From: a virus
Lineage: Duplodnaviria > Heunggongvirae > Uroviricota > Caudoviricetes
DNA: 12,744 nucleotides
Strand: one strand, 5' to 3'
Virus record (IMG/VR): IMGVR_UViG_2660238548_000016
Shown: positions 1-12,733 of the stretch, piece after piece
Layout: each line of letters opens with the position of its first letter
How positions within the stretch are numbered: the first letter of the stretch is position 1
Position numbers and translations under genes: made by a program
Notes under the pieces: model-generated
Databases searched by the model: none
Told to the model about the DNA's origin: nothing
What the model saw: the letters and a program-made list of their open reading frames with translations, nothing else

Positions 1-269
1 GGCTTAAGGAAGCCGGATTACTGGCATCAACAGGGAGTACTGGCGACTCGTATGACAACGCGATGGCTGAGAGCATCAATGGTCTTTACAAAGCGGAGGT
101 AATACACCGTAAGAGCTGGAAAAACCGTGCAGAAGTGGAACTGGCCACACTCACGTGGGTGGACTGGTATAACAATCGACGATTGCTGGAAAGGCTGGGC
201 CATATTCCTCCGGCAGAAGCAGAAAAAGCTTATTATGCTTCCATCGGAAATAATGATCTGGCAGCCTGA
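1..269 (+). CDS. IS3-family transposase (OrfB, integrase-core), C-terminal fragment; 5' end lies outside the window
   Basis: The reading frame is open from base 3 and translates ...GDSYDNAMAESINGLYKAEVIHRKSWKNRAEVELATLTWVDWYNNRRLLERLGHIPPAEAEKAYY..., the characteristic C-terminus of IS3-family DDE transposases (SYDNA.AES glutamate motif, WYN..R.H..LG pattern). Stop at 267-269. Confidence 0.85.
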   Translation, partial: LKEAGLLASTGSTGDSYDNAMAESINGLYKAEVIHRKSWKNRAEVELATLTWVDWYNNRRLLERLGHIPPAEAEKAYYASIGNNDLAA

Positions 270-311
270 GTTCACAGATAAAATACTCTCCAGGAAACCC
301 GGGGCGGTTCA
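1..311 (+). mobile_element. Right end of an IS3-family insertion sequence (partial); terminal inverted repeat about 272-311 ending ...GGTTCA
   Basis: Transposase 3' end is followed by about 40 bp that ends in CA, as IS3-family termini do (5'-TG...CA-3'). The downstream exonuclease ORF on the other strand is cut exactly here. Exact terminus not verified. Confidence 0.6.
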
Positions 312-656
312 CCCCTGCCGTTCGTATGAACGGCGCAAAATCGTGTTGTCGAAGTTGGCTCCATTTCCCCAGACCTGAACAAAAAATTCACCGGAGTTTT
401 CGTCGATAAATTCCCGCAATTGTAACAGTGCATCATCTAACGGGATTTCATCGGTCATAATGGCAGATTGCGCTTCGCGTGATTGCTTAAGCCACCGTTT
501 AATGGTGTCCCGATCAATGACTCCGCCAGCAGTTTCCAGATCGATAGTCTTACTAAATTCCGGTCCCATATCTCCGGTTTGCGGATCGAAAAATATTGCA
601 CCTATTGAGATAATCGGGGCATCAGGATTTTTTCCCATGGTTTTAAGGTCGATCAT
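309..656 (-). CDS. DnaQ-like (DEDD) 3'-5' exonuclease-family protein, C-terminally truncated by the IS insertion; start uncertain (ATG 656, or upstream ATG 806 overlapping the recE-like gene)
   Basis: Translation MIDLKTMGKNPDAPIISIGAIFFDPQTGDMGPEFSKTIDLE...IKRWLKQSREAQSAIM...FVQVWGNGANFDNTILRRSYERQG resembles small phage-encoded DnaQ-like exonucleases. The ORF ends ...ERQG and its stop codon (TGA on the minus strand, bases 311-309) is formed by the terminal TCA of the IS. Confidence 0.5.
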   Translation of the reverse strand: MIDLKTMGKNPDAPIISIGAIFFDPQTGDMGPEFSKTIDLETAGGVIDRDTIKRWLKQSREAQSAIMTDEIPLDDALLQLREFIDENSGEFFVQVWGNGANFDNTILRRSYERQG

Positions 657-712
657 TAGATGGTCACACGTCCTGCTGGTGGATGTGATAACGTGATGAC
701 CGTTCACCGTAA

Positions 713-2530
713 TTAAGGGATTTGCTGTCTCGCCTGTTTCATTATTGCCATTGGCATGTTGATCGCCTTCGGTGCATTGCTTATTCGGGAGCACGGCATT
801 TTCCATTTCCTCCGGATTTTTTTCCGGGCTTCATCCTGGCTTTCTTCGTTGAATGTCTCTTGGTAGGTTGCGTCACCCATTACCGCTCCACAATCAGGGC
901 AGTTGCCGCCATCGGTCTGACCACATGTGGTGCAAACTTTTTCTGGTTCTTGTTGCACTACTGGTTCAGGTTGTTTTGTTTTTGGCTCGTTTTGTAACGC
1001 ATTTGGGCTGTTTTGTTCCGCTTTATCCTGATTCTGGTCATCATCATCGCGACTCTGGATCCCCTTCACCCATTTTGGATCATTCGGGTCGCTAATCCCT
1101 TCAACAAATTCTCCTCGAGAAGCAGCCAGTAATTTATCTGCATCGACAGGATTTTTGGGTGGAATGTTTTTCTTGGCTTCATGGAGTTCTGCACGCAGTT
1201 TCTGATATTTCGCATCAACAGAATTTATCTGTGGCTGAGCATCCATCGACTGCGTGTCCTGATTATGTTCAGTTGTATCCGGTTCCACTGCTTCAGTCGT
1301 TGCCTGTTCATCTGCCATTGCGCCAGATGGCTGCGGTTTTTCTTCATCATCCTGTTTTCCTTCTTTTGTTACACGCTGCGGCATCGGGGCAGAGGAGCGA
1401 CCACAGGCAATATCCACGATTTCCGGATCAGGGGTGGCATGATCGGTTTCAGTCAGCACCTTATTCAGGTATTCGGTGACACGGTGGGGAGTAGCCTCTA
1501 TACCAATTGGTGCTTCTTTCACGGACGCAACCACGATGGCGCGGGAGTAATCCTTGTGGCCCGGCATGGTGATGAATTTGCTGAAAAACACAGAAAATGG
1601 CGGTTTATTTTCAGCGATAATTTCCTCAATGCGTTTAGCGTGCGCGGGATGAAGGTTATAAATATCCACGTCCATTGAACGGGCCAGTACGCCAGTGGCT
1701 ACGTCACGCGCCACTGACGCATCATCGTGGACAAAACCTTCGCCGCGATCGGTAAGAATGCCGCCGCCAGCGTTAGCGCCGGATGGCGTGCGGCTGATGC
1801 GTGAAACACGATTTCCTTTCATCCACTCTTTTGTAAGCAGACCGCGATCGGTGTAGTCAGCGCCCAGGTATGCTTCGATAAAAGAGGTCATCAGTCCCAG
1901 GTCCGAATTTACGGGGGCGGGGAAAACTTTGTCAGTGTCTCGCACCAGTTTGTACAAATCCCGAAGCTCCAGCGGTTCGAGTTGCACTGCTTTATTTGAG
2001 ATGGCCAGCGCGGTAACGGCGGGAAGTTTTTCATCCTGTGCGTTATGTAATGCGCGCAGTTTGTCCAGTGAAACGTGCGTGAGCGGTTTTTCGCTGTTGT
2101 GTTGCGCCAGCCAGCGAACAGGCAGAATCTGACCTGAAACCGGAAGAAGCATATTCTCCTCAATCTTAGCCATGTCTTCGCCGTTGACGTTGGTATTGTC
2201 AGTACTGGCTGGTTTGTCCGGAACAGAGGGCGCGATAAGTATCATTGTGATACCATCTTCTCCGCCTTTTTCGTATCGGTTGCAGAATTCAGTATCAAAC
2301 ACACCTTCCGGTGGAAGGTCATTCACAACGGGTAAATGGACGCGGATGGGTTTTTTAAAATCCTCTTCGTCAAATCCGGCATCGTCCATTGCAGCAACAC
2401 CACGTGATATTGCAACCGATAATTTTTTTGCTGTGCGCCAGTAAAAACCACCTTTAATCCCAAGGCGTTTTCTGACTTTGTCATTTTTGGCTTCGTAATA
2501 TAGTGCAATTTCTTCTTTATCAGCGTTCAT
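713..2530 (-). CDS. RecE (exodeoxyribonuclease VIII)-like protein, N-terminal region only (605 aa); C-terminal nuclease domain absent
   Basis: 605-aa ORF with GAGG 8 nt upstream of the ATG. Long stretches match my recollection of Rac RecE residues about 100-600 ([101 protein letters not shown]). The ORF stops about 25 aa after the zinc-ribbon motif, where RecE would continue into its nuclease domain. Confidence 0.75.
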
Positions 2531-2622
2531 TGATAAACCTCATAACCATTTTAAGGATGAACAAATTCCTGCCATTGCTGGCATTTTTAATCCGTTGGTA
2601 TGGCGTTAATATGGCTGGCGGG

Positions 2623-2811
2623 TTATCCAGCCGGTGTTTCGTTATTCAGGTACAGCGATACTTTTTTTAACGGGAGGCATTCACCGGGGATTTTTTGTTC
2701 GTCCCTTACCTGAATGCAGGATGACTTACTGTAATAAATTCCGGTAATCACATTCTGCGGCTCACCCGTTATAAGAAAAACGGTCATTATCAGTGCAAAC
2801 GCTGAAGTCAC
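2623..2811 (-). CDS. ydfD: YdfD-like small lysis protein (62 aa), Qin-type dicB operon
   Basis: Lies immediately downstream of dicB. GTG start overlaps the dicB stop (GTGA) with GGAG 9 nt upstream. Hydrophobic N-terminus MTSAFALIMTVFLITGEP... matches my memory of Qin YdfD. Confidence 0.6.
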   Translation of the reverse strand: MTSAFALIMTVFLITGEPQNVITGIYYSKSSCIQVRDEQKIPGECLPLKKVSLYLNNETPAG

Positions 2812-3165: not shown

Positions 3166-3223
3166 AAAAAGGGCGGCAGAGCAGTCACGGAGTAAAACTG
3201 ATACCGCCAAATGTCACCAGAAA
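3166..3223 (-). ncRNA. dicF: DicF small regulatory RNA (ftsZ-targeting sRNA of the dicB operon)
   Basis: The minus strand reads TTTCTGGTGACATTTGGCGGTATCAGTTTTACTCCGTGACTGCTCTGCCGCCCTTTTT, which I recognise as DicF, ending in its intrinsic terminator (GC stem plus T run). A 9-bp stem (GGGTTGTCA/TGACAACCC, 3249-3287) sits just upstream on the same transcript, plausibly the processing hairpin. Ends approximate. Confidence 0.8.
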
Positions 3224-4108: not shown

Positions 4109-4348
4109 TTATCCTCGTTGGTTAGCTATTAACGCGGGTATGTAATCATTCTGGCAATGCTTAATGCCGCTGCTTTTTCCAAATTGGTGATATCCTGCTC
4201 CAGAGCGGACAGATTTTTCAGCCTGCTTAGCCCTGGCTTCATTGGCCCATTTCAGATCCTGCGCTGCATTAATTTTCTGGCGCATCCACTCATAAAGTTC
4301 ATCATCGGTATAGTCTGGCGCGATGATGACGGGTTCTCGTTTATGCAT
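4109..4348 (-). CDS. Small phage protein (79 aa) at the ydfC position of a Qin-type dicB operon
   Basis: ORF with GAGGAA 6 nt upstream of the ATG, in the same orientation and operon position as ydfC. Sequence not recognised beyond context. Confidence 0.55.
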   Translation of the reverse strand: MHKREPVIIAPDYTDDELYEWMRQKINAAQDLKWANEARAKQAEKSVRSGAGYHQFGKSSGIKHCQNDYIPALIANQRG

Positions 4349-4395
4349 ACTGATTCCTCGCGGTGCTGTTTCGCTTATCAGCCGTTAGATTTTGC

Positions 4396-5577: not shown

Positions 5578-6112
5578 ACAGGTTTGTGAGGCTCTGGATG
5601 CCTGGGTATGCCGACCAGGAATGACACAGGAGCAGGCGACGATATTAATCACGGAAGCATTCTGGGCTCTGAAAGAACGCCCGAACATCGATGTTCAACG
5701 CGTCACGTTTGATGATGGCGCGGTTGATCAACGGGCGCTGGGCGTTAACCGGGTGAAGATATTCGAACGCTGGAAATCTATCGACACCAGGGATAAGCGG
5801 GAAAAATTCACGGCGCTGATTCCGGCAATTATGGCGGCTATCCGGATCAGTGATTTCAGGTTGTATCGTGAAATTACTGACGGAAAAAGCATTACGTACA
5901 TGATCGCCGGGTTAAACAAAGAATATGGCGATGTGGTGGAGTCAGGGCTACTTTTTGCGGATCCAGCTGTTGTGGAACGTGAGACTGACGAACTTATAGA
6001 AAAAGCTATTGCTTTCAAGCGTGCGTATCGTCAGCAATACCAACATTACTTTGCAGATAAACAAATATCTGTCTGGGGTTCGTATGAGTATCGATGCGCT
6101 ACGATGGGCTAA
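5561..6112 (+). CDS. YdaT-family protein (183 aa; CII-position regulator or toxin-like protein of Rac/Qin-type prophages)
   Basis: ORF overlaps the dicC stop by 17 nt; position and N-terminal pattern (MKITPEQV...) fit YdaT-like proteins that follow the cro analog. Confidence 0.7.
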   Translation: MKITPEQVCEALDAWVCRPGMTQEQATILITEAFWALKERPNIDVQRVTFDDGAVDQRALGVNRVKIFERWKSIDTRDKREKFTALIPAIMAAIRISDFRLYREITDGKSITYMIAGLNKEYGDVVESGLLFADPAVVERETDELIEKAIAFKRAYRQQYQHYFADKQISVWGSYEYRCATMG

Positions 6113-8798: not shown

Positions 8799-9026
8799 CG
8801 CGAGTGCGTGTAACTTTTGATGTTATTTCCGTAGAAACACCGGACAAATTTTCGCTGGCAGGTCATGCTGAAGGTATAAATCTGCAGATTATGGACAATT
8901 ACGGATATCCGGCAAGAGCCGGAAAAAGCATGCCGCCTCTAATTCTCAGTGGAAGATGGACTTGATTATACTCATTGCATTGTCAGAAATAGTTATCCAT
9001 TAAAGGCTGGCTATTCCAAACAGGAT

Positions 9027-9050
9027 GTTGATTACAAAAATGTAATCAAC
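9027..9050. promoter_or_regulatory. Perfect 24-bp palindrome GTTGATTACA-AAAA-TGTAATCAAC (candidate operator) upstream of the binding-protein moron, with TATAAT at 9079-9084
   Basis: 10-bp perfect inverted-repeat arms separated by 4 bp, about 30 bp upstream of a consensus -10 hexamer and about 170 bp upstream of the ATG at 9217, in a strongly AT-rich intergenic region. Confidence 0.35.
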
Positions 9051-9216
9051 ATGTAAGGTTTATACTCTTCAATATGCGTATAATTTTCCTTATTTTGTTA
9101 ACTTTAAATAACAAGCTATGCACGAGGTAAAGTCGGATAAGTTTATCTGGATGTAATATATATTATTTGTAGTGTTTATAACTTTATTTCATGATAACCA
9201 ATAAAAGGAGTTTTTT

Positions 9217-9975
9217 ATGAGGAACATAATGGCAGGTTTTTTAATATTCCTGTCTTCTGCTGCTTATGCTGATATCAATCTGTATGGTCCTGGTGGCCCG
9301 CATACAGCCTTGCTTGATGCAGCCAAACTTTATGCCGAAAAAACAGGTATTATAGTGAACGTTCATTACGGCCCACAGAACAAATGGAATGAAGATGCCA
9401 AAAAAAATGCAGATATCTTGTTTGGCGCATCAGAACAATCTGCTCTGGCTATCATTCGGGACCATAAAGACAGCTTCAGTGAAAAAGATATTCAGCCTCT
9501 TTATCTGCGAAAAAGTATTTTACTGGTAAAGAAAGGTAATCCTAAAAATATCCGGAGTATTGACGACCTGACCAGACCCGGGATTGGCGTAATTGTTAAT
9601 GATGGTGGTGGTACCAGTAATACATCAGGCACTGGCGTCTGGGAAGATATTGCCGGACGTAAAGGGAATATAGAAACTGTCGCCGCAATCCGAAAAAATA
9701 TTATTTTATATGCGCCCAATAGCGGAACTGCACGTAAGGCTCTTGAGAATCAGCCTGAAGCAGATGTCTGGATAACCTGGGCTGACTGGGCAGCCAGTAA
9801 TCCAGAAATTGGTGATGTCGTGGAAATAGCGCCAGACTACGTGATATGGCGTGATATGAACATTACAGTACGTCAGGATGCAAATGATGAAACCCGTCGA
9901 TTTGCAGAATGGCTACAAACCGATGAAGCGGCGCCTGCATTCAAAAAATATGGCTGGACCAGGAAAGGCACTTGA
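9217..9975 (+). CDS. Secreted periplasmic substrate-binding protein, ModA-like (molybdate/tungstate-binding fold); orphan with no transporter partners in the window
   Basis: AAGGAG 7 nt upstream; signal peptide MRNIMAGFLIFLSSAAYA. ModA-like landmarks: ADILFGASEQS, LLVKKGNPKNIRSIDDLTRPGIGVIVND, C-terminal AFKKYGW. AT-rich codon usage unlike the neighbours. Confidence 0.8.
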   Translation: MRNIMAGFLIFLSSAAYADINLYGPGGPHTALLDAAKLYAEKTGIIVNVHYGPQNKWNEDAKKNADILFGASEQSALAIIRDHKDSFSEKDIQPLYLRKSILLVKKGNPKNIRSIDDLTRPGIGVIVNDGGGTSNTSGTGVWEDIAGRKGNIETVAAIRKNIILYAPNSGTARKALENQPEADVWITWADWAASNPEIGDVVEIAPDYVIWRDMNITVRQDANDETRRFAEWLQTDEAAPAFKKYGWTRKGT

Positions 9976-10160: not shown

Positions 10161-10167
10161 TGCTGCG

Positions 10168-10230
10168 GGTGCTTGAGGCTATCTGCCTCGGGCATGAACA
10201 CCAACGGCAGATAGATAAAAGCCCCACCCG
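10168..10230 (-). ncRNA. sok: Sok-like antisense RNA (antitoxin of the hok/mok system); boundaries approximate
   Basis: By analogy with R1 hok/sok, the antisense RNA should be complementary to the hok mRNA 5' leader. The minus strand here contains CUAUCUGCC...GGCAGAUAG followed by CCUCAAGCACC, the same architecture as the R1 Sok 3' region. Promoter not confidently located. Confidence 0.4.
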
Positions 10231-10256
10231 ACTATAAATCGAAGTGAGGCCCCTAT

Positions 10257-10469
10257 ATGCTCGTCACATATAGATTGCCTCTTACGGACCGAAAGGTCAA
10301 GGAGAAGCAGGCTATGAAGCAGCAAAAGGCGATGTTAATCGCCCTGATCGTCATCTGTTTAACCGTCATAGTGACGGCACTGGTAACGAGGAAAGACCTC
10401 TGCGAGGTACGAATCCGAACCGGCCAGACGGAGGTCGCTGTCTTCACAGCTTACGAACCTGAGGAGTAA
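10257..10469 (+). CDS. Mok-like overlapping reading frame (in-frame N-terminal extension of hok, 70 aa)
   Basis: In-frame upstream start sharing the hok stop codon, as mokC shares its stop with hokC in E. coli. Confidence 0.45.
   Translation: MLVTYRLPLTDRKVKEKQAMKQQKAMLIALIVICLTVIVTALVTRKDLCEVRIRTGQTEVAVFTAYEPEE
10314..10469 (+). CDS. hok: Hok/Gef-family type I toxin (51 aa membrane peptide)
   Basis: MKQQKAMLIALIVICLTVIVTALVTRKDLCEVRIRTGQTEVAVFTAYEPEE is near-identical in pattern to Gef/HokC; AAGGAGAAG lies upstream of the ATG. Confidence 0.85.
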   Translation: MKQQKAMLIALIVICLTVIVTALVTRKDLCEVRIRTGQTEVAVFTAYEPEE

Positions 10470-11296: not shown

Positions 11297-12346
11297 GTGC
11301 GGGTATTACTTCGACCTGTTCTGGTACCGGAACTCGGGCTGGTGGTCCTTAAGCCAGGTCGTGAATCCATGCAGGTATTTCACAATACCCGGGTACTGGT
11401 GGAGCCGGAACCGAAAAGCATGCGTAATCTGCCGTCCGGGGTCGTTCCTGCCGTTCGCCAGCCGCTGGTGGAAGACAAAACATTGCTGCCATTTTTCAGC
11501 GACGAACGAGTGATTCGTGCTGCTGGTGGTGCTGGTGCATTGTCTGACTGGCTGTTGCGCCATATTAAATCCTGCCAGTGGCCACACGGCGATTATCACC
11601 ACAGCGAAACTGTCATTCACCGTTATGGTACCGGCGCAATGGTGTTGTGCTGGCACTGCGACAACCAGCTACGGGACCAGACATCCGAATCACTCGAGCA
11701 ACTTGCTCATCAAAACCTGTCAGCATGGATGATTGACGTCATCGGTCACGCAATAAGCGGTACGCAGGAGCGTGAATTATCTCTGGCTGAATTATCCTGG
11801 TGGGCGGTCTGCAATCAGGTGGCGGACGCGCTACCGGAGGCCGTATTACGTCGTTCTCTGGGGTTACGTGTGGAAAAAATCCGCTCCTTGTACCGCGAAA
11901 GCGACATCGTACCGGGAGAGCAGACCGCCACCAGCATACTGAAGCAGCGCACAAAAAATATTGCGCTACCGCCTCACACCCACCAGCAACAGAACCCACC
12001 ACAGGAAAAGACGGTGGTCAGCATTGCCGTTGATCCGGAGTCTCCGGAATCCTTCATGAAACGACCTAAACGTCGCCGCTGGGTAAATGAGAAATACACA
12101 CGCTGGGTAAAGACACAGCCGTGTGCGTGTTGTGGTAAGCCAGCGGACGATCCTCATCATCTGATTGGTCATGGTCAGGGCGGAATGGGAACAAAATCCC
12201 ACGATATTTTCACGCTACCGCTGTGTCGGGAGCATCACAACGAGCTTCATGCGGATCCGCTGGCGTTCGAAGAAAAGCATGGTTCCCAGGTTGATTTAAT
12301 TTTTCGTTTTCTTGATCACGCCTTTGCAACCGGCGTGCTCGGGTAA
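11297..12346 (+). CDS. ydfU: YdfU-like DUF968 prophage protein (349 aa) with a C-terminal HNH/zinc-finger-like motif
   Basis: GTG start with GGAGG 5 nt upstream. Length and N-terminus MRVLLRPVLVPELGLVVLKPGRES... match Qin YdfU as I recall it. C-terminus CACCGKPADDPHHLIGHGQGG...CREHHNELH has the Cys/His spacing of an HNH-type fold. Confidence 0.8.
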   Translation: MRVLLRPVLVPELGLVVLKPGRESMQVFHNTRVLVEPEPKSMRNLPSGVVPAVRQPLVEDKTLLPFFSDERVIRAAGGAGALSDWLLRHIKSCQWPHGDYHHSETVIHRYGTGAMVLCWHCDNQLRDQTSESLEQLAHQNLSAWMIDVIGHAISGTQERELSLAELSWWAVCNQVADALPEAVLRRSLGLRVEKIRSLYRESDIVPGEQTATSILKQRTKNIALPPHTHQQQNPPQEKTVVSIAVDPESPESFMKRPKRRRWVNEKYTRWVKTQPCACCGKPADDPHHLIGHGQGGMGTKSHDIFTLPLCREHHNELHADPLAFEEKHGSQVDLIFRFLDHAFATGVLG

Positions 12347-12358
12347 AAGAGGTTACTG

Positions 12359-12733
12359 ATGCGTATAGAGTTTGTTTTGCTTTACCTGCCGACGGTGAAC
12401 ACCTACTGGCGACGTCGTGGCAGCACATATTTTGTATCAAAAGCCGGTGAGCGTTATCGCCGGGCTGTGGCGCTTATTGTTCGCCAGCAGCGGCTGAAAT
12501 TAAGCCTGTCCGGAAGGCTGGCGATAAAGATTATTGCCGAGCCACCGGATAAGCGCCGCCGTGACCTGGACAATATTCTGAAAGCGCCGCTGGATGCGCT
12601 GACGCATGCGGGGTTGCTAATGGACGATGAGCAGTTTGATGAAATCAATATCGTTCGTGCTCAGCCAGTATCTGGTGGACGTCTGGGGGTGAAGATTTAC
12701 CCCATAATGCTTGAAGGGCAGGTCAAAAAATGA
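12359..12733 (+). CDS. rusA: RusA Holliday-junction resolvase (124 aa)
   Basis: AAGAGG upstream. ...PPDKRRRDLDNILKAPLDALTHAGLLMDDEQ... matches the RusA catalytic region (DRRRRDLDN...DALT.AG...DD.Q). Confidence 0.85.
   Translation: MRIEFVLLYLPTVNTYWRRRGSTYFVSKAGERYRRAVALIVRQQRLKLSLSGRLAIKIIAEPPDKRRRDLDNILKAPLDALTHAGLLMDDEQFDEINIVRAQPVSGGRLGVKIYPIMLEGQVKK

Follow-up and report, generated by a model that had tools for sequence, protein, structure and literature searches.

RecE, DexA and proteins that combine them

The RecE protein (exonuclease VIII) of the Rac prophage of E. coli K-12 is 866 aa long and ends in a PD-(D/E)XK 5'-3' nuclease domain (approximately aa 600-866, PF12684-like), preceded by an N-terminal region whose function was given as unknown in a 2023 review (PMC11611040). 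A different group of exonucleases, of the DEDDh family and with 3'-5' polarity, includes T4 DexA (8KEL), M. tuberculosis Rv2179c, the founder of Pfam family PF16473, and the E. coli DexA homologue EcD ("HREX"), an exonuclease reported as an anti-T4 defence (PMC12153337).

In E. coli O103:H2 12009 (NC_013353.1) a Qin-like prophage adjoining rspB carries one unflagged CDS of 2418 nt, labeled "exonuclease", for an 805-aa protein (WP_000990639.1, also found in O45:H2, O121 and others). Compared with DexA, EcD and Rv2179c, whose family its C-terminal module shares, this protein adds a 600-residue RecE scaffold. The same two modules occur in the viable lambdoid phages mEp460 (LR597641, 823 aa) and vB_EcoS-689R5 (ON470583, 813 aa), and in an 823-aa ORF of an Enterobacter cancerogenus prophage. 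All three genes lie between DUF1482/ydfD and xis-int, as the 805-aa gene does, but they differ from the copy described here in being intact, at 58-70% identity and with much more diverged N-terminal regions. A literature search on Rv2179c-type or exodeoxyribonuclease VIII prophage exonucleases found nothing specific to a RecE-DEDDh fusion.

The copy described here lies on the minus strand (309-2530) of a 12,744-nt stretch of viral DNA (IMG/VR record IMGVR_UViG_2660238548_000016), which was analyzed as a whole and is called the window below. It is very probably a pseudogene of a single gene of a lambdoid-prophage early left operon, encoding an 805-aa two-module protein and disrupted by a deletion in a run of A and by an insertion sequence (IS). 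The locus is a case of ordinary prophage decay, and its frameshifted allele is already annotated as such a pseudogene in RefSeq.

Two overlapping reading frames and a shortened A tract

Read from the sequence, the minus strand holds a 605-aa ORF (713-2530) and a 165-aa ORF (309-806) that have 94 nt in common (713-806), reproducing a preliminary description of this DNA. Domain searches also upheld both of its family assignments. The 605-aa ORF, described as the N-terminal region of RecE, matched PF06630 (Exonuc_VIII) over aa 56-187 in Pfam (E = 1.7e-24, 87.2 bits against a cut-off of 25) and covered positions 1-566 of the 877 in the NCBIfam RecE equivalog NF007259, with the alignment breaking off at residue 571. 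The 165-aa ORF, described as a DnaQ-like exonuclease family member, matched PF16473 (Rv2179c-like 3'-5' exonuclease) in Pfam (E = 5.3e-38, 130.9 bits against a gathering cut-off of 27), over profile positions 2-121 of 177 only. The domain matches of both ORFs are far above chance level.

Pfam, NCBIfam and the comparison with Rac RecE place the in-frame part of the RecE N-terminal scaffold at 824-2530 on the minus strand (approximately residues 1-569), with a zinc-ribbon-like CxxC...CxxC motif at aa 533-547. The 605-aa ORF had been said to end about 25 aa past this motif; the distance is actually 45 aa, and the last 34 residues (572-605, ending QQIP, with the stop codon; 713-816, minus strand) are out of frame and homologous to nothing. 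The same stretch of the minus strand (711-816) encodes a RecE-homologous acidic linker, ancestral residues 572-607, which can now be read in no frame other than that of the 165-aa ORF and includes the ATG (804-806) that opens it. By blastp, this linker in the intact protein aligned with Rac RecE 559-591 ("DPEEMEGAEHPHNE...ETGEVADPVI").

Comparison of window positions 312-2700 with the 12009 prophage gave 2389 identical positions of 2390. The sole difference lies in a homopolymer at 817-823 (minus strand; T7 on the plus strand), which is A7 in the window and A8 in the intact gene. Adding one A to this run regenerates exactly the single 805-aa ORF of 12009, just as the preliminary description had foreseen in proposing that a frameshift could fuse the two ORFs. 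The RecE homology (72% identity to RecE aa 50-591) spans aa 58-607 of the intact protein, running through the frameshift into the frame of the 165-aa ORF. Replication slippage would have shortened the A8 tract by one A. Ribosomes starting at the native start codon would then lose frame at codon 572 and meet a stop 34 meaningless residues later, which accounts for the 605-aa ORF. The overlap between the ORFs would be the distance that the shifted frame runs before a stop, with no coupling device. For annotation, both ORFs are best merged into a single disrupted gene, and it would be wrong to name either of them RecE or a functional exonuclease.

The two alleles differ greatly in frequency. The intact 805-aa sequence was found on at least 1000 contigs and the 605-aa product on 6, and among the 17 complete genomes with this allele 16 had A8 and one had A7. 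The last of these, 377323_2f (NZ_CP039404.1), carries the A7 form as E9097_RS12460, which matched the window at 100% over an 81-nt test segment and 99.9% over 2389 nt; unlike the window, it has no IS and its 3' end is intact. PGAP/RefSeq labels it [quoted passage not shown]. The 605-aa product was exactly encoded in six NCBI draft contigs/assemblies, most of which stop short of the IS junction, and draft contig L003 combines A7 with an uninterrupted 3' end. The frameshift probably preceded the IS insertion. One base in a 7/8-nt homopolymer is a classic type of sequencing or assembly error, which would leave the IS insertion as the only real lesion. With the same 605-aa product in six independent NCBI assemblies and A7 in one complete genome, an inherited allele fits better, and we consider such an error unlikely.

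The overlap could also be taken for a deliberate two-gene design, in which a nuclease-less RecE scaffold is translationally coupled, through the shared 94 nt, to a separate DEDD exonuclease. GGAGG precedes the ATG at 804-806, and gene callers have called a separate downstream ORF on other contigs. However, the spacing from this Shine-Dalgarno-like sequence to the ATG is just 2 nt, and GGAGGAAATGG merely encodes the conserved residues PEEME. RecE homology persists for 36 residues past the shift in the second frame, while the tail that ends the 605-aa ORF matches nothing, and the counts above set the unsplit A8 form against very few split copies. Owing to the IS, the second ORF also lacks motif III. 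An Enterobacter "standalone" exonuclease of 239 aa, which begins at the equivalent of the Met of the second ORF and was considered as a genuine internal start, proved to be part of the continuous 823-aa ORF. A two-gene design is thus highly improbable.

Programmed recoding was a further candidate. In E. coli, slippage is known to occur at runs of A, and the A7 tract lies precisely in the linker between the modules. Transcriptional slippage or a -1 ribosomal frameshift on a slippery A7 might yield the 605-aa protein together with a full-length fusion at a fixed ratio. The common A8 allele, however, needs no recoding, the run of A is absent here from Rac recE and from other homologues (EAKEND), A7 is not conserved across diverged alleles, PGAP handles A7 as a frameshifted pseudogene, and a fusion made from the window would remain truncated by the IS. 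Because of the allele counts, and because the tract is not conserved in RecE, we rejected it as a site of phase variation or recoding, and programmed recoding deserves hardly any credence.

With the locus read as a single frameshifted gene, a few products might regain the full frame through occasional slippage on A7 during transcription or translation, and weak independent initiation of the 165-aa ORF could occur from the GGAGG 2 nt upstream of its ATG. Without motif III, the products of either route would be enzymatically inactive. The cell may nonetheless produce the 605-aa RecE-scaffold fragment, which could keep whatever function the scaffold has.

The IS insertion and the exonuclease motifs

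Positions 1-311 (plus strand) are the right-hand end of an IS3-family insertion sequence of the IS629/IS1203 group, identified by Pfam and by identity to annotated copies. They include the 3' end of a transposase gene (63-269, plus strand; Pfam rve_3/rve_2 integrase-core matches). The window begins inside the IS and covers one junction. The terminal inverted repeat of the IS, which is oriented opposite to the exonuclease gene, ends at 311, and identity to the uninterrupted 12009 gene ends at window 312, placing the boundary at 311/312. These 311 nt were 100% identical to multi-copy "IS3 family transposase" elements in EHEC genomes, where the segment was present in a median of 3 and a maximum of 49 places per genome. 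Among complete E. coli RefSeq genomes, none carried this IS at this junction. A related insertion carries the annotation IS1203.

The TGA stop of the 165-aa ORF (309-311, minus strand) comes from the IS, whose terminal repeat contributes its first three bases (TGAACCGCCCC...). The ORF is therefore truncated at its 3' end, and the preliminary description was right about the presence of an exonuclease ORF, though not about its completeness. In 12009 the frame goes on (...ERQG-IPCPWRYY...) for 65 codons past the IS junction of the window. The IS3-family element entered after codon 740, cutting off the last 65 codons with the Exo III H-x4-D and supplying the stop that gave rise to the 165-aa ORF.

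What remains of the predicted DEDDh (Rv2179c/DexA-like) 3'-5' exonuclease occupies 312-710 on the minus strand, residues 608-740 of the ancestral protein. The intact allele has a complete PF16473 domain (profile positions 2-177 of 177, 211.8 bits). The window copy keeps the Exo I and Exo II regions, but Exo III (H778-x4-D783) is gone: the HNALDD sequence (aa 778-783), which the intact allele shares with all full-length homologues, is located beyond the IS junction. The Exo II aspartate (D of NFD, residue 728) was invariant in the homologue alignment. At Exo I, an AAA lysine codon (642-644, minus strand; residue 630 of the intact protein) stands at the position of the catalytic glutamate, turning D-x-E into D-L-K. 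The motif reads DLKT in both the window allele and 12009 and DLET or DIET in 66 other retrieved family sequences, with glutamate in 9/9 of the other aligned homologues.

In a PDB sequence search the RecE scaffold had no match, and DexA was the only, weak match (E = 4e-4). In its alignment D7 and D119 were matched, D119 pairing with the Exo II aspartate, and with phmmer the Lys630 position fell on E9 of the DexA sequence "IIDFETMG". Of the two DexA residues of 5hmC recognition, D169 falls beyond this weak alignment and W152 is paired with a tyrosine of the intact allele; that region is deleted in the window.

Judging by other DEDD enzymes, replacement of the Exo I glutamate by lysine should leave metal-dependent catalysis abolished or crippled. 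The allele of this lineage had the lysine before the present lesions. The decay considered in the preliminary description is thus borne out by a frameshift, an IS truncation and the Exo I Glu-to-Lys change in the window copy, from which probably no functional exonuclease is made.

Module swap and genomic setting

The intact 805-aa protein has PF06630 and the complete PF16473 and no PF12684 match, whereas 889-aa RecE variants such as P0002 show 85% identity to it over aa 1-608 and then a PF12684 PDDEXK domain. Against NF007259, the intact allele aligned over profile positions 1-603 of 877, its score of 1021.9 lying below the cut-off of 1269. The RecE part passes sharply into the DEDDh part at residue 607/608 (near window 711), a point within the 165-aa ORF that corresponds to RecE residue ~591. 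The domain replacement that had been suggested is supported, with its breakpoint here and not at the end of the 605-aa ORF.

By homology, the N-terminal ~607 residues of the ancestral protein are a RecE (exonuclease VIII) scaffold, which has PF06630, the zinc-ribbon-like CxxC pairs and the acidic linker in common with RecE and the 889-aa variants. The C-terminal ~200 residues are a predicted DEDDh 3'-5' exonuclease of the Rv2179c/T4-DexA family, replacing the PD-(D/E)XK 5'-3' nuclease with one of opposite polarity. The intact architecture, found in viable phages such as mEp460 and in Enterobacter, is a real module swap that is old and widespread. The RecE N-terminal scaffold occurs with either of two alternative nuclease modules, PD-(D/E)XK or DEDDh, whose polarities are opposite, an arrangement that is not new but has been little noticed.

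The 805-aa gene also differs from recE in its surroundings. In Rac, recE and recT are adjacent, whereas the intact relatives of the 805-aa gene, including mEp460, show the order dicB-DUF1482-exo-xis-int with xis and int directly downstream and no recT or bet. The window shares the dicB-DUF1482-exo neighbors with 12009, where the complete exonuclease domain is followed by xis-int-rspB. RecT/ERF/Bet-type matches were absent from the 12 window ORFs scanned with Pfam and from the Pfam labels given to the matching genes of L003. Of the earlier phrase "decay of a recombination module", the decay stands, but nothing points to a module of RecET type; intact relatives go straight to xis-int without an annealase.

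The scaffold is attractive for experiment, as its DEDDh version has no annealase partner and a DexA-like anti-T4 exonuclease has been reported (PMC12153337). A PADLOC scan of the intact 805-aa protein gave no match. The intact relatives, expressed from the early left operon beside dicB, might be an uncharacterized prophage nuclease, either degrading incoming modified phage DNA in the manner of HREX/EcD or processing ends independently of an annealase, although we hold this to be improbable. If it were true, the RecE scaffold would be a general "DNA-end delivery" platform for swapped nucleases of opposite polarity. The window copy is dead whichever reading holds for its intact relatives, and because it has been inactivated several times over it adds nothing to the question of the scaffold.

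Loss of this gene has been repeated: besides the Exo I Glu-to-Lys change and the frameshift in the A tract, there have been at least three independent IS insertions. Were the relatives such a nuclease, repeated loss would reflect a cost of carriage. Separately, E. coli exonuclease forms of 183 aa were located at contig ends.

A single gene split by a frameshift

Two minus-strand ORFs, a first of 605 aa (713-2530) and a second of 165 aa (309-806), lie in different frames and overlap by 94 nt, the upper bound given in the preliminary description. That description took the first for the N-terminal part of RecE, and profile searches agreed, with PF06630 ('Enterobacterial exodeoxyribonuclease VIII') matching aa 56-187 (Pfam, E=1.7e-24) and the NCBIfam RecE equivalog NF007259 matching over profile positions 1-566 of 877. 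A domain search of the second bore out its assignment to an exonuclease family, returning PF16473 ('Rv2179c-like 3'-5' exoribonuclease', E=5.3e-38), though with coverage limited to profile positions 2-121 of 177. The two ORFs had been described accurately apart from the distance between the zinc-ribbon motif and the end of the 605-aa ORF, which is 45 aa rather than about 25.

Megablast of window positions 1-2700 against complete E. coli genomes showed that 312-2700 is matched at essentially 100% in many strains, including O103:H2 12009, O45:H2 and O121. The counterpart in 12009 is one unflagged CDS of 2418 nt, annotated 'exonuclease' (WP_000990639.1, 805 aa). Base by base, the two differ once in 2389 nt: 12009 has a run of eight A (A8) and the window has seven (A7, 817-823). 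The A8 frame reads directly into the sequence of the second ORF; the A7 frame reaches a stop 34 residues on. Restoring A8 thus recovers the 805-aa ORF, as anticipated by the earlier suggestion that a frameshift could fuse the frames. The intact protein (residues 58-607) aligns with K-12 Rac RecE (residues 50-591) at 72% identity; as this alignment spans the frameshift point, the ancestral frame is proved independently. For the 605-aa ORF, alignment to the RecE profile stops at residue 571. By these comparisons, the two ORFs are a single broken gene.

The continuation of RecE homology across the shift, the truncation of the second ORF and the allele frequencies all contradict a deliberate split-gene or coupled arrangement; the intact 805-aa sequence is present in at least 1000 contigs and the 605-aa product in 6. 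Programmed slippage at A7 is likewise contradicted, as the in-frame A8 allele is dominant and RecE has no A-tract at this position. Of the complete genomes that carry the allele, A8 is found in 16 and A7 in a single one, strain 377323_2f, whose copy PGAP labels a 'frameshifted' pseudogene. A homopolymer sequencing error confined to the window is unlikely, since A7 occurs in seven other assemblies, and such an error would leave the gene unrescued because an insertion sequence (IS) is still there.

A RecE scaffold with a different exonuclease module

The preliminary description had raised a domain replacement, and on sequence comparison the intact allele does represent a genuine swap of modules: its protein carries PF06630 and a complete PF16473. 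E. coli RecE variants of 889 aa (e.g. P0002) share 85% identity with it over aa 1-608, including an identical stretch of ~200 residues, but past aa 608 they carry a PDDEXK domain (PF12684). The proposed alignment with Rac RecE places the breakpoint at residue 607/608 (RecE ~591), which corresponds to window ~711, inside the second ORF, and coincides with the start of the RecE nuclease domain. A 2023 review puts that domain at 564-866 and describes the N-terminal region as 'of unknown function' (PMC11611040).

The distribution of this architecture indicates that the swap is neither recent nor local, as it is found in the viable lambdoid phages mEp460 (823 aa) and vB_EcoS-689R5 (813 aa), in Stx-phage relatives and PHROG families of ~820 aa, and in an Enterobacter cancerogenus prophage (823-aa ORF). 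For the last of these (JBJDOB010000001.1; L013 3249-5720) the recorded product is 239 aa, while the DNA holds the uninterrupted ORF with PF06630 and PF16473. Some short 'standalone' exonucleases listed in databases may be fusions called too short.

The gene falls outside RecE proper, having no PD-(D/E)XK domain, a score under the cut-off and no RecT. By homology the gene is a PF16473 member, with two of the catalytic motifs missing from the window copy. Members of the gene family are usually annotated 'exonuclease', '3'-5' exoribonuclease domain-containing protein' or 'RecE family exodeoxyribonuclease'.

IS insertion and catalytic residues

Positions 1-311 are the end of an IS3-family element, identified from a transposase-domain ORF (63-269, plus strand; rve_3/rve_2 integrase-core matches) and from 100% identity of all 311 nt to multi-copy 'IS3 family transposase' elements in EHEC genomes. 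The window loses identity to the uninterrupted gene at 312; the next bases are the IS terminal repeat, TGAACCGCCCCGGG..., whose TGA is the stop codon of the second ORF. The second ORF is cut after residue 740 (...SYERQG), removing 65 residues including the Exo III motif H778-x4-D783, an H-x4-D found in every full-length homologue. A7 with an uninterrupted 3' end occurs in a draft contig (L003) and in 377323_2f, suggesting that the frameshift probably preceded the IS.

IS3-family elements (IS1203) also split this gene, or a paralogue ~90% identical to it, in O103:H2 PV16-126 (NZ_AP038987.1, L002 5730-7026) and in strain 121 (NZ_CP028656.1, L017 3368-4667). Their sites and orientations differ, one lying at window-equivalent ~963-973 and the other at ~codon 567, beside the A-tract/linker. 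These insertions are independent and, with that in the window, bring the separate IS hits on the gene family to at least three. IS-split copies in other strains are annotated as two partial pseudogenes.

Exo I reads D-L-K-T in both the window allele and the 'intact' 12009 gene (Lys codon at window 642-644; 6058-6060 of the 12009 locus, L001). The motif is DLET or DIET in 66 other retrieved family sequences, Glu occupies the position in 9/9 other aligned homologues, and the site aligns with D-x-E of T4 DexA. In DEDD exonucleases the Exo I Glu is a metal ligand, so its replacement by Lys suggests that the 12009-type allele was probably catalytically compromised before the frameshift and IS lesions. 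The 'intact' 12009-type ORF of those 1000 or more contigs, widespread in O103/O45/O121-type strains, is thus probably catalytically dead.

The module belongs to the T4 DexA family (PDB 8KEL, E=4e-4). A 2025 paper describes the stand-alone DexA homologue EcD of E. coli, reporting that it digests 5hmC-DNA and confers protection against T4 ('HREX'), and lists D12/E14, the ε-subunit residues corresponding to the Exo I carboxylates, as key (PMC12153337). In contrast to the 5hmC-recognising W152 of DexA, the intact allele has Tyr at the aligned residue, and the intact protein matched no PADLOC model. A defence or end-processing role for intact RecE-scaffold fusions is offered as a lead only. The window copy most likely has no exonuclease function at all, judging from its lesions; it may nevertheless still produce a shortened RecE-scaffold protein ending in junk residues. 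The decay also considered earlier is seen in the A7 frameshift and IS truncation, and is ordinary, already known prophage decay, in a genome that is IS-rich and of EHEC type.

Gene neighborhood and other window features

Directly upstream of the exonuclease gene, all on the minus strand, are DicF sRNA (3171-3222; Rfam RF00039, 77 bits), dicB (2808-2996) and a DUF1482 gene (2623-2811). These form a Qin-type division-inhibition operon, which places the exonuclease gene in the prophage early-left transcript. A ydfC homologue (~4130-4349, minus strand), labelled 'frameshifted' in 12009, where the sequence is essentially identical (L001 2353-2572), is possibly a second small pseudogene of the same operon.

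The order dicB - DUF1482/ydfD - exonuclease - xis - int held in all intact examples examined, none of which had a RecT, Bet or ERF gene beside the exonuclease. In Rac, by contrast, recE is followed by recT. The window ORFs scanned gave no annealase match, and the earlier question of a recT- or bet-like annealase beyond the IS is answered indirectly: xis, int and chromosomal rspB come next in isogenic uninterrupted loci.

Elsewhere, a sok RNA (10167-10316; RF01794, 103.9 bits) and a Hok/Gef-family ORF (10257-10469, plus strand; PF01848) make up a hok/sok type I toxin-antitoxin locus (10167-10469, plus strand). The ORF at 9217-9975 (plus strand), flanked by the prophage replication genes and hok, encodes 252 aa with a signal-peptide-like N-terminus, matches the periplasmic solute-binding protein family SBP_bac_11 (PF13531, E=1.6e-34) and lies where GC content is low (35% in 9001-9500); it resembles a cargo ('moron') gene. 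A DUF968 protein with a weak HNH-like match (11297-12346) and a RusA Holliday-junction resolvase (12359-12733), both on the plus strand, are the usual lambdoid nin-region pair.
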